Assembly (NCBI GenBank): GCA_030324005.1
Contig: JARDVH010000163.1
Coordinates: 94,051,366-94,115,365, forward strand
Source of the DNA: Negaprion brevirostris
Lineage: Eukaryota
Direction of reading: 5' to 3'
Length of the DNA: 64,000 bases
Positions 37,181 to 42,819 of the stretch are shown here, in pieces. Made by a program: the position numbers and the translations under genes. The stretch's first letter is position 1. Each line of letters starts with the position of its first letter. A model generated the notes under the pieces. It saw nothing but the letters and a program-made list of their open reading frames with translations. It ran no database searches and had not been told where the DNA came from.

Positions 37181-39935
37181 GGAAATTTATACAACCCAAA
37201 AAACACATTGACGTGAACACTTCTGAAAGCTGGGTGAATTCCCTGTTCCTTTCAGTCTTGGTCTGTAATTCTTTGACAGCCTTTGCTTTTCTGCATCTCT
37301 TGTATTGTACTGTTGTACAACTTTTATTTTTGCCTTAGTTTGTGTTACAATCCCATTTATACAAACGTGTTGCCCGGTTCATCTGTCCTTTCCTTTCTTC
37401 CTGCTTTGGTTTGCAAAGGCTCCTCTTGAATTGGGCACTTGGAAGTGTCTGTGAGTAGTTTGGGACCAATGACCTATTTATTACCTTTCTCCTGGGGAAG
37501 TAGCTTGCTTTAAATCTGTGTACCTTTGTAAGCACAAGGTCAAGAACTCTATGAAGGGAATACTAAATGTGAACACGCATTTTACCATCTGTGGTGCCAA
37601 GGTACTCTGAAAACATACTGTCCACATCACTTCTTCTGTTGTTTTTAATTTGTTTTCATTTTTTCACTTCACTTGATACAAAGCATTCCTTAAATCTCAA
37701 CCAAAGCAAACATTGCCCGTGGTCTGAGAGAGCAGTTCAGGCTCGGTAACACCTCTGCAGTTATAATAATCACACACTTGCCTCCATCTAGTGTAGACTG
37801 TCTCTGAAGTCTGGAAATTGGCATCATTTTGACTATCACAAATCTGCCCTGCATTTCCCTATATTCTGAGGTAGAATGTGACTTATTCAGTATTGCTCCA
37901 TTATATAGTATTCTTCGGAAGTAAGAACAAAGCTATCCCAAATTTATTTTGGATTTAAATCTGAACCTCTTAAAAATCATGAAAAAAATGTTATTACAAT
38001 AAACAATTAAATGGTGTTATTATAACATTCTATTTAATTAAATTTTGAGCTAGATTGTTAAAGTTTCAATATCGATTATTTTGCGACAGCATCTAATTTT
38101 GCTGATCTTTGCATCATCATAAAGCAGTACTGTGGTTGATGCAAGACAACTATTGAATATGTATTCAAGGTTGTAACCTACTCAGTAAAGGTATTCTGTC
38201 AATATATACACAACAGCAAATTGTAAAGCTGGATTTGCATTGTTTGGGAATATCTATTTAAAATTATAAAGGATATTTAAAGTCAAAAACTAAAAGTGCC
38301 GATGCCAACAAGAAAGGTGACCATCAGAAGGCCGTAGGAGATTATTCAAACTATTCCTTACTTTCTATATCATAAAAATGTTCTGTAGCATACTAATGTT
38401 TTTTATTGTCAGCATGTTTTATTCAGTTTTAGTAGTAAAAGAAAAGTAAATCCATTAGCCACATAAATGCTTTGTCTAGGATATCTTTGACTGCCCAGTG
38501 GGCCTATACTATCTGGTGTATACTAAATTTTTGAGTAAAATGTCCTAATTTTATCCCTCAGCTATGCTAAATTAGCTAATATTAGCAGTAGCAGCAAATA
38601 GAACATTATAGTTGACATCAAGCATTCTAAATTAGTATGAGGAATAAGCAACTGAAGTTCCTGGATGCTGTTAACTGACATCCAGTTACCAGTGCTACGA
38701 AGTGTATAGGTATTAAAATTGGATGAGGACTCTTAGTCCTGTTAGTACATGTCTCTTAGTAGATGAGGAACTTGTCATCACTTGCTCTGTAGGCTTGCGT
38801 ACAGAGAATGATCACTTGAGTAAGGTGCCATGGGCTGCTGGAATCCATGAGGAAATTTTCCATTATGACTCCGGTGAATTCAAGAGAACACCGAAGGGAA
38901 TGATTTTGTTCACTTTGCATAAAATTGAGTGCACAATTAAGACTCAGTTCAAATCTAGAAGGCGGATCTGTAATTTGTTTGACATATTCACAGGCAAACC
39001 ACTAGATGGCACGTCCAACTAGAGAAAATACTGTAAGAACATGCTTCCTGATTACCAAATTAGAAACCAACATTGGCAGCAGAAGTTATGGGGAGAGCCT
39101 GTGGCCTTCTCACAGTACGTTCCCAGATAGATGGGAATCTGTTATAAGCTGGTGTGAGAAGGTTCGGCAACGTAAATAAAATGTCAGTTATCTCCCCAAC
39201 CAGCATCTGTGACATGTCACCAATGTGATGGAGATTCTATTTGATATCTTCAGTATCCCATGTACATCGATCACCAGTTTAGAGTACAAACTTCTGTTGA
39301 TATGACATAGTTATTTTGACTTACGCTGTCTGTGTTTTTCTAAGCTAATATTCTGGTCTAGTGGCCCCACTTTTTTGAACTTGAATGCATGGACAGTCAG
39401 CTCCACCTAATATATATCTTGCTTTTGCCATAATACATACTCAGACAACATGCTGTTACCCCCATTTGTGAGCTTTAGATGCTGCTGTCTGTCAGCCTCT
39501 GGTGGTTTATCTCTAGTGTCTGGATTTACTTTAAGACTTGTACGTCTATCACAGTGGTGTTGCTTTGAATGTGAGATCAAAAGAAGATGAATTCCAGAAA
39601 AAATTTCCTTGTATGAAGAAAGGAACAGTCTTGTGTAAACATCCCCATGACAGCTCCCAATGAGTTATTTTACTAGAGCATTAGCACCCAGGATGACAGA
39701 CAGGCAGAGACTACGTGCAAAATAACAGATCAGTCCCTGTGAGCCAGCAGNNNNNNGCCACAACAGAAATAAGATTTCTAAAGGAATTTTGTTCCACTTT
39801 TATAGTAAACGTTTGTGTGGCAGCTCATCTTTTTACAAGCTGTCTTGCCTTGGAGTCTTGCAAAGCAGACACTGGTTTTCTTTACGAGGTGATGTTTGTT
39901 ATTAAGGCACTCACCTGACAGAAAGCAGCAGTATC

Positions 39936-40235
39936 ATGAATAGAGTCAAGGATAAATTTGAGAACAAAGTCAAGATGGCTATTGTACATTTTTGTTTATT
40001 TGTCATTTACTTATATGGGCATTGCTACTGTGGAAACGGGCCTTCTGAGCTGGCCAAGAAGGGCAGCCTTCCAGTATATTTTCATTTCAGTGAGCTTCAG
40101 CAGCATAGCACTTCCTGTTTATTCAACATCTTTACACCATTCTTCAGCCCCCGCTTCACAGCAACAGCCAAAGAACAACTGCAAGCCAACGGAAATTTAG
40201 AGGCATTAAGATCTTTCGGTAAACTTCCCCACTCT
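39936..40235 (+). CDS. FOXP1: Putative alternative first coding exon of the FOXP1-like gene (100 codons), spliceable in frame to 41586
   Basis: ATG 39936 (atcATG) and in-frame ATG 39975 (aagATGG, strong Kozak); open for 300 nt to TCT|gtaatt (phase 0, weak donor). Contains LQQHSTSCLF and RSFGKLPHS, resembling the recalled human FOXP1 alternative N-terminus (..VLQPHSTSCLFKHLF..RAPFAKLFIFS|ALQVARQ). Translation is not demonstrated. Confidence 0.55.
40110..40123 (-). promoter_or_regulatory. FOX:ETS composite motif
   Basis: ACTTCCTGTTTATT = AATAAACAGGAAGT on the minus strand, an overlapping forkhead plus ETS site matching the established endothelial FOX:ETS motif. Confidence 0.55.
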
Positions 40236-41585
40236 GTAATTATTTGTGTCATATCCAGAATTAAATCTGCCAATTAAACAGTCCCAGTGAGCCGAGTAGG
40301 GGAGCTGTCGAAAGATGCAAATGTTATGATTTAACCTTAAATTGATGGTAAATTAGGTCATGCTGAGGAATAAGGAAAATTTTACGAAGAATCAATTTAT
40401 ATTTTTATCAGTCAGTTTTGTGTATAAATACTGGGGGTGACTTGTACAACCAAAAAAGTTTGCTTCATAAAGTCAAATAACAGGTAGTAACAAAGAACAA
40501 CTCGTCTGCCAAAGCACATATAATGAATGTTTTCTAAATAATATTTAACTCCATAAAAGTTGCCTTTTGTGATTAAGAGTGGTCAGATGTTTGGAACTGG
40601 TCTGAACTGTTTGTTTAATAGTAGGAGTAATCACATGGGGGAGGGGAATGGAAAGAGTGACTGAATTTATTTACTCAGATGTTATACTGATGTAGGTGTG
40701 GAACTGAAAGTCATTGTGGGAACTGTGGGTTGGTTTTTGTTGGTATCTTCATAGTTCTGATGGTCATCGAATTTCCCAGCTTGTTGGTTTTGTTTATTCT
40801 GGACAGTCTAAGTTTGATTATTTATCAGAAGGAAAAGGGAGTAGTTTGGGCATAAAACGCCTATGCTGGGTTTTATTTTTCCAGCAGCCAGAAGCATGGT
40901 TTAGTGCATTGCAAATCTTTTAAAGACAGCATTCTATGGTATGATTTATTTTGATGAAAGAGAGTAGAATTTTTAATTCAGTTCTAATTATCCCAAGCAG
41001 CATCGTACTTATAAGTAAACAAATGGCTAATAATGTTCTTCACGTCCAACTTTTTGTATTATTAGGATAGTTTCATGATTTCTTTTTGGTTTGTAAGATA
41101 TTTTAATATATCCCATTTTATTATTCTCCCACTCATAGCCCAAGGGATTCTTTGGTTTAGCTGTTTTGTAACATTCTAGCCAGCTCTTCATAATGCATTG
41201 TTCCTTTGGAAAATTTGATATCTACTGACAACCATCCATCAATATAGTCTGAAAATGGAATACTCTTTTAGTGCAAAAAGGAGACATCAGAATGCAGAAT
41301 ATTTCGTAGATATACCTTTATGTTCAATAAAAAGCATGTTAACTTTAAAGAGACTTCCAGAATTTAATGTTGCAGAATTATATGTGGCACTGTCATCAAT
41401 CGAAATAAATTTCATTTATCTATTTAAAAAATTTCTTTTAGGGTGTTAGCTGTGGAGGTTTGAGCTGTAAAACAAACTCTATGAAGCACCATTTGTGGTA
41501 ACTCTTCTTTGTGTAACAGAGTAGTAAACTGTCCCATTGGGTCTATTTATGGTTAAAAGGTGAATGTTATTCTTTTTTTATGTAG

Positions 41586-41675
41586 GCTTTTCAAGTTGCA
41601 CGACAGCTCCTGCTGCAGCAACAAGCCAGTGGGCTAAAGTCTCCCAAGGGAAATGACAAGCAACCGACCCTACAG
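41586..41675 (+). CDS. FOXP1: Internal coding exon of a FOXP-family forkhead transcription factor (N-terminal Q-rich region), best match FOXP1
   Basis: Acceptor ttcttttttatgtag|GCT and donor CAG|gtaagt; 90 nt, phase 0-0; translates [30 protein letters not shown]. Compare human FOXP1 [11 protein letters not shown]7VSGLKSPKRNDKQPALQ and FOXP2 [34 protein letters not shown] family near-certain; the paralog call rests on VAR and NDKQPxLQ plus the upstream exon. Confidence 0.9.
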
Positions 41676-42819
41676 GTAAGTGTATATTTATAGATTATAT
41701 GTATAACGTGTGCATGTTTGAACTGTTCTTAGATAGGAAGAATGTGAAGTGGACAATTTTGACGTGGGTGTCATGTGCTATACTTAATGGAATGATGCAA
41801 AATAATCTTTAATGATCTGTGTGCTAACCAGATCTGATGTTAGGTAGTGAAGAAGTGCTTTGTTGTGTTGTTGGTGTCTAAAAACTCCCTTAGAAAATCA
41901 AATATGACTACTTTGACCTTTCAGCTTATATGTGAGTATTCAAATAACTTGAAAGGATCAAATGAGCCACTGTTCATAGTCAAACTAGGAATTTTGTTAC
42001 AGAGGATACTCTTATAGTCAGTTCTATTACAGAACCAATCTGATTCTTATGAAGGGTTGGTGCCACTGAACTGAGGTATCATTATTAAAATTCAGTTTTA
42101 TTAAGGCATTCAAAACATAATTAAATAAAATGCTATATTTATTCTAATACCACTTTGGGTCTTTGATATTTATATATAAATCTACATACTGTTAATACCA
42201 TGAATGATTTTTGCTCTCTGCTTTGTCTCTTGCTCACAAAAAACATGAAATGAAATGCACTCCAGCAATATGCATTCATGCCATTTTATTGGCCACACTA
42301 AAATTGAACATTAAAAAAAGTTCTGATTTCCCTAAACTGGGTTGAAGTAAAATGACCTTGAGCTAGGATTACAACATTTTCATGGTAAAGAAAGATTTAT
42401 ATCAGCCAGTATACTTTTGATATTAAAAAAAGAAAAAAAAACTAAAAGTGATTTATGTTTCCATTTTGTATTTGGAAATTTTTTCTCACTTTAAACTATG
42501 TGCACCTCCACTGATCATAGCCCTGTTCTCCACTGACATCCACACACACATCACTGAAATTTTGTACCCTGCCAAGTTCAGGAATGGAGCATAATGGAGC
42601 CTGAAAATACTCGCGCCACTCGGCATGCCAATTTTCTGATTCTGTTCCTGCAGCTGCCCATTATTATGCTGAAGTGGTTTTCAAGCCAGTAGTGTTATCT
42701 GCCTCAGTGAGACAGGTAGCCAGTTGTGTCAGCCAGAGATAAAGAAGACTGTCTAGGATTTTTGCAGCGGGCTTCCAGTTTCCTGATGGGACAAAGGACC
42801 ATGTGACTGCTTGAATGCA

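Follow-up and report, generated by a model that had tools for sequence, protein, structure and literature searches.

Why should DNA lying between two coding exons of a shark FOXP1 gene read, piece by piece and in different frames, like the N-terminus of a human FOXP1 isoform? The window, the whole 64,000-nucleotide stretch of the Negaprion brevirostris genome that was analysed, spans intron 6 to intron 7 of FOXP1 (exons numbered as in the cited FOXP1 papers). Exon 7 occupies 41586-41675 on the forward strand (30 codons, phase 0), its junction with exon 6 appearing as a loose end in run X1 of a relative; exon 6, whose translation equals P0003, lies about 35 kb before the window, and later FOXP1 exons follow downstream on the same contig, one of them 100% identical to annotated Mustelus asterias FOXP1. 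The exons match FOXP1 rather than FOXP2, FOXP3 or FOXP4, and the other FOXP genes are on other contigs. The alternative 5' element considered here lies between exons 6 and 7, 1.35 kb upstream of the latter; a DNA search of the shark's own genome with the element returned this locus alone, with no FOXP2 or FOXP4 copy at that sensitivity. Our preferred reading, to which we give a probability of roughly 0.6, is that the element is an orthologous exon conserved as DNA, likely non-coding in sharks and likely kept as a Forkhead-Ets element of an internal promoter.

The first-pass annotation had recognized peptide words of a human isoform in the shark sequence, and all are found where it placed them. 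Frame A (codons starting at 1 mod 3) holds FQYIF (40069-40083), HHSSAPASQQQPK (40135-40173) and KPTEI (40183-40197), and frame B (that of the ATG at 39936) holds LQQHSTSCLF (40095-40124) and RSFGKLPHS (40209-40235). That isoform is also real: its 62-aa N-terminus occurs letter for letter in P0238 (UniRef: Isoform 3 of FOXP1, Homo sapiens, Q9H334-3), and again in the gorilla, orangutan and mandrill records P0226-P0229. Comparison with the human DNA was made through peptides rather than nucleotides. A frameshift-aware protein-to-DNA alignment lays amino acids 2-46 of P0238 on 40069-40197 with 27 of 45 residues identical and a score of 100; the score falls to 53 without shifts, and 34 control stretches give 28 +/- 4 with a maximum of 42. 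The score and the siting in intron 6 bear out the suggested orthology to the human alternative exon. The path needs three -1 shifts, near 40093, 40125 and 40136, and the proposed splitting of the match over frames is real, though it runs through three frames (A-B-C-A) and not two. A six-frame search of the shark genome with the 62-aa N-terminus gave nothing significant (best E 1.09, at a different locus), as expected for a match cut by frameshifts. Programmed ribosomal frameshifting was ruled out by reasoning, given three shifts, an absent start codon and a stop at 40198.

In this alignment register, with residue F2 at 40069, the shark has GCC (40066-40068, forward strand) where mammals have the start ATG. 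The conserved core of the element extends from 40060 to 40218 on the forward strand, as delimited by the three-frame alignment to P0238 amino acids 2-46 and by the absence of indels in relatives. These comparisons establish, at the level of sequence, that the element is the shark orthologue of the FOXP1 exon encoding the human isoform-3 N-terminus. That exon appears to be the one called 6b, judging from the description of the 76-kDa FOXP1-011 in the available text of PMC3887110.

Among vertebrates the peptide itself is unevenly distributed. A profile search of 80 candidates recovered 20, namely gar and 19 mammal-type records, of which 13 are in frame with a Met, two have Leu for Met and four are frameshifted (Galemys, marmot, bowhead and one further contig); these mammalian frameshifts come from gene predictions or single contigs, and some may be errors, with two agreeing records for marmot. 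No bird, reptile, amphibian or teleost carrier appeared among the 20 hits or among 244 other proteins screened, a weak search; the tortoise model P0314 failed to match the exon (score 24). The 83 cartilaginous-fish FOXP1 isoforms, which are listed subsets of larger clusters, start in exon 6 (57), in or at exon 8 (17), with a lone Met (5) or in other exons (4), and in none of them does a 5-mer match any frame of the element. It might still be that the 62-aa peptide was encoded ancestrally and disappeared secondarily from sharks and some mammals, as the approximately 90% peptide likeness among in-frame mammals and the gar model P0034, with its 62-aa N-terminus and its core in the human frame, would favor. 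However, the gar model lacks the Met, and its first nine residues fit shark frame C (7/9), so that the model is shifted relative to the human start; together with the missing bird, reptile, amphibian and teleost carriers and the even freezing of all codon positions described below, this makes an ancestral coding peptide very improbable.

In our preferred reading it is the DNA itself that is conserved. The central block is read in three ways: primates and gar have it as STSCLF, Galemys as ALPVYS and marmot as HFLFIQ, and every one of these readings matches one shark frame exactly. The human frame by itself would permit 3456 DNA strings; the three mammalian frames jointly permit two and, on the assumption that the three mammals have this DNA in common, 40107-40125 equals the shark at 19 of 19 bases. 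Contigs from relatives were compared in five of the 14 listed runs (X1, X2, X4, X6 and X7, taken by guess to be RNA), a set apart from the closest runs, X9-X14. In X7, 40060-40185 carries four listed changes in 126 nt vs. 17 in the 102 nt upstream (Fisher P 8e-4, with core bounds chosen post hoc and one X7 change unlisted). The third positions of codons are as frozen as the others, with third-position changes in the X7 core numbering 1/42 in frame B, 0/42 in frame A and 3/42 in frame C vs. the same 17/102 upstream. Nine variable sites in the relatives are synonymous three times in frame B, once in frame A and twice in frame C; the same sites give six replacements in frame B, and seven replacements and one stop in frame A. 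No excess of synonymous changes was thus found in any frame, nine sites being few. The suggestion that selection acts on nucleotides rather than on the peptide is upheld by the three-frame alignment, the 19 forced bases and the replacement-rich variable sites.

Splicing of the element to exon 7 is seen in one of the five relatives' runs. A 985-nt contig of X7 covers 39936-40219, reaching 674 nt further upstream than its aligned part, and then continues with 28 letters, 26 of which, compared by eye, agree with 41587-41614. The overhang is shorter than the 31-nt bridging rule and comes from a single contig of a single relative, to which, rather than to Negaprion brevirostris, the junction belongs; the GT-AG rule applied to this contig places it at 40218/41586. 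The X1 and X2 contigs read through unspliced, and those of X4 and X6 end before the donor. The splice donor seen in X7 is thus GTAAAC (40219-40224, forward strand), with the exon ending at 40218. With this donor the frame that enters exon 7 in phase is A, which two stops, TAG 40198 and TAA 40207 (40198-40209, forward strand), close. Both are unchanged in X2, which shows no difference across 40158-40279. The last 20 or so bases of X7 are unreadable; of TAG 40198 the first letter, T, is all that can be seen, unchanged. X7 has an additional frame-A stop at 40162, yet also an ATG in frame A at 40186-40188, 11 codons before the junction; a short 11-codon coding start there is unlikely. Candidate donors at 40090 and 40287 were dropped, being altered in relatives.

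The first-pass annotation had proposed that shark and human alike retain a frame that stays open as far as a shared donor. The mammalian donor, placed with the help of the Logan peptides P0230 and P0232, which both read through, has its positional counterpart in GTAATT at 40236-40241 on the forward strand, 17 nt downstream of the donor seen in X7. This GT has T at +5 and scores -2.26 by a simple frequency matrix, a score equalled or bettered by 30% of the window's GTs, and the X1 and X2 contigs read through it. With the spliced contig using 40219 and 40236 a poor donor, the shared donor is not supported. Nor is the net frame kept: start to donor measures 170 nt in the shark vs. 186 nt, and the homologous start is GCC.

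A variant of the same proposal deserves separate weighing, namely that donor 40236 is used, giving a 100-aa N-terminus from the ATG at 39936, and that selection maintains an open frame whatever the peptide. Frame B is open from 39906 to 40277, in phase 0 with the GT at 40236 and with exon 7, and that GT is unchanged in X2. The long ORF within it (39936-40277, forward strand), which with donor 40219 becomes a 117-codon upstream ORF ending in exon 7, is also unusual, 123 open codons having P ~0.01 in 1000 dinucleotide shuffles, although the window holds 11 frames of at least 123 codons. Against this stand the weakness of the donor, the junction observed at 40218 and the relatives, in which the continuity from the in-frame ATGs 39936 and 39975 is broken: all three that cover 39994-40059 carry a 1-nt indel within the ORF there, at 40017 (X1), 40044 (X7) and 40056 (X6), each in a single contig, at depths of 2.65, 7.3 and 5, respectively, one of them thus below 5. 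By comparison, 40060-40218 is free of indels in 4/4 relatives where covered. None of the 83 annotated isoforms uses such an N-terminus, and a protein search with the frame-B ORF, a weak test, scored none of 16 candidates. Selection for frame continuity therefore seems highly improbable to us.

The exon as a whole does not behave as a conserved coding exon, with GCC for ATG, lengths of 170 vs. 186 nt, in-phase stops and indels in three of three relatives, and in sharks it is probably an alternative 5' exon without a coding role. Of the eight ATGs upstream, none opens into the FOXP1 frame with donor 40219 (two do with 40236), so that, if Negaprion brevirostris uses donor 40219, FOXP1 would be translated from the Met pair of exon 8 and would lack about 100 N-terminal residues. 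The short human FOXP1 is described as starting at M101, in exon 8, in the accessible part of PMC5394978.

An untranslated exon could be constrained after transcription: in such a 5' UTR, long upstream ORFs (whatever their frame) or sites for protein binding might adjust how strongly exon-8-initiated FOXP1 is translated. Two of the eight ATGs upstream of donor 40219 give upstream ORFs of 104 and 117 codons over the core, and stops are scarce in 39958-40197 (4 vs. 9.5 expected, P 0.006, with bounds chosen post hoc). In the core itself, though, no depletion of stops was found (2 vs. 3.3, P 0.24), nor a stable RNA fold (z +0.74), nor a match of the element in Rfam at E up to 1; the frames of the upstream ORFs vary between relatives, and the exact identity of a motif of DNA-binding type would be left unaccounted for. 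We consider such post-transcriptional constraint unlikely.

In the preferred reading that motif would be the Forkhead-Ets element of an internal promoter. It is a predicted motif of Forkhead-Ets composite type, ATAAACAGGAAGT, at 40110-40122 on the reverse strand, the sole match in the window and inside the 19-base stretch 40107-40125, and it fits the published composite k-mer WAAACAGGAAG as given in PMC6949242. The pattern has 739 matches in the 2.69-Gb genome vs. 755 for a reversed control, and so is not enriched. By our own arithmetic the chance of a match is ~4e-5 per 160 nt, but the motif was spotted after the fact, and with one mismatch allowed 0.51 chance matches would be expected in the window. 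Its bases show no listed change in X2, X6 and X7 (X1 is unreadable there), and substitutions in camelids and bowhead fall at 40109, one base outside it. The motif covers 13 of the approximately 160 conserved bases. The 122 nt without a difference in X2 run past both donors, which the motif does not explain.

Conservation beyond both donors would also be expected of an intronic enhancer of FOXP1, beside which the exon would be a side effect, transcribed at a low level and with donors free to drift; the unspliced X1 and X2 contigs, the different donor positions in shark and mammal and the adjacent alternative exons that lack a start or donor in Negaprion brevirostris fit this picture, and the motif argument applies equally under it. 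We nevertheless regard it as rather improbable, since the exon is joined to exon 7 in a cartilaginous fish as well as in mammals, and exon 6b transcripts are reported as frequent in human 5'RACE in the available text of PMC3887110.

The events favored here, in which the exon belongs to an internal promoter, can be set out as follows. From shark to mammals the core is orthologous and shares its nucleotides, and in one relative the exon is spliced to exon 7 at 40218/41586. A transcript with an untranslated 5' exon in sharks would most likely come from a promoter internal to the gene, within intron 6. The transcript may be driven by an ETS factor and a FOX protein (either FOXO1 or FOXP1 itself) that bind 40110-40122, an input that is possibly autoregulatory. 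The 62-aa N-terminus would have arisen in mammals when an ATG gained frame with a downstream donor, and would have been lost again in several mammalian lineages. Human exon 6b is common to the 573-aa and 76-kDa isoforms, according to the part of PMC3887110 available, and lymphocyte activation raises short FOXP1 isoforms, according to that of PMC9576946. A more specific version is tentative: the isoform-3 N-terminus would be a mammalian by-product laid over a regulatory exon common to jawed vertebrates, and its most conserved "peptide" would be the Forkhead-Ets site at which FOX (possibly FOXP1) and ETS proteins act on the internal promoter that yields the short FOXP1 found in activated lymphocytes and in ABC-type lymphoma.

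Several neighboring features of the intron and of exon 7 may be recorded in their own right. Another alternative 5' exon of intron 6, at L031:4637-4669, has an 11-aa start that stays in frame from sharks to turtle (P0006, P0151, P0196) and forms a coding counterpart to the exon studied here. The N-terminus of Heterodontus isoform X6 (P0135) has its match at 40942-41010, with the start codon and donor GT absent in Negaprion brevirostris, and that of Stegostoma isoform X2 (P0152) at L031:6698-6742, where Negaprion brevirostris has a stop. Five sharks, gar and sheep have an annotated isoform in which exon 7 is preceded by a lone Met. Intron 6 holds five candidate sources for it, among them an ATG followed by GTAAAT at 40345-40353 on the forward strand (score 3.43, in the top 2% of GTs), a candidate second donor whose use would leave an N-terminus of one Met. 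At exon 7 itself, an 839-nt X1 contig of depth 198 runs from 41589 through the donor into intron 7, to about 42430, and would end near ATTAAA 42422 and the A9 run at 42433, by intronic polyadenylation or internal priming. Across 41556-41605, every X1 contig that includes the exon-7 acceptor is short of one G at 41585, which the other X1 contigs keep, from an artefact or a second copy.

The practical result is a single candidate site of 13 bp, the same in shark and mammals, for control of short FOXP1, whose promoter mechanism is described as "largely unknown" in PMC3887110. Variants in the human isoform-3 exon may act through DNA binding and not through protein, and frameshifts in it need not mean loss of function; the exon would also illustrate clearly how a coding N-terminus was likely built from regulatory DNA that predates it. 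We found no account of the exon's conservation in sharks or of the motif in the open-licence literature (Brown et al. 2016, possibly relevant to the promoter, falls outside that scope), and the accessible parts of PMC6625093 and PMC5866538 held nothing further on the exon. None of the three ingredients (the human exon, Forkhead-Ets sites, enhancers in exons) is new in itself, so the gain is moderate.

Among known systems the closest is human FOXP1 exon 6b itself (Ensembl FOXP1-011 / -009; Q9H334-3), which lies in the same intron between exons 6 and 7, has homologous DNA and is likewise spliced to exon 7. The shark exon differs from it in lacking the start ATG and an in-frame N-terminus, in its three frameshifts and in the relative's donor, 17 nt upstream. 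The predicted shark product corresponds to the short FOXP1 without the first 100 amino acids (M101; mouse Foxp1D), and 17 of the 83 cartilaginous-fish isoforms begin in or at exon 8, annotated proteins whose link to the exon studied here is hypothetical. The FOXP1 endothelial enhancer Foxp1+138, which probably lies far upstream of human exon 6, we take to be a different element. Its position is given as hg19 chr3:71,493,515-886 in PMC11896612, six of whose supplementary files contained no Foxp1 entry. With the Forkhead-Ets and endothelial FOX:ETS enhancers, as presented in the accessible portions of PMC6949242 and PMC11896612, the shark motif has in common an exact fit to WAAACAGGAAG and is deeply conserved, but its place is within an alternative 5' exon. 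The coding exons of developmental genes can also contain enhancers, which, as described in PMC3342275, likewise involve exonic DNA conserved beyond the needs of the peptide; in the shark and mammalian case, by contrast, the coding role is restricted to certain lineages and is probably younger than the regulatory one.
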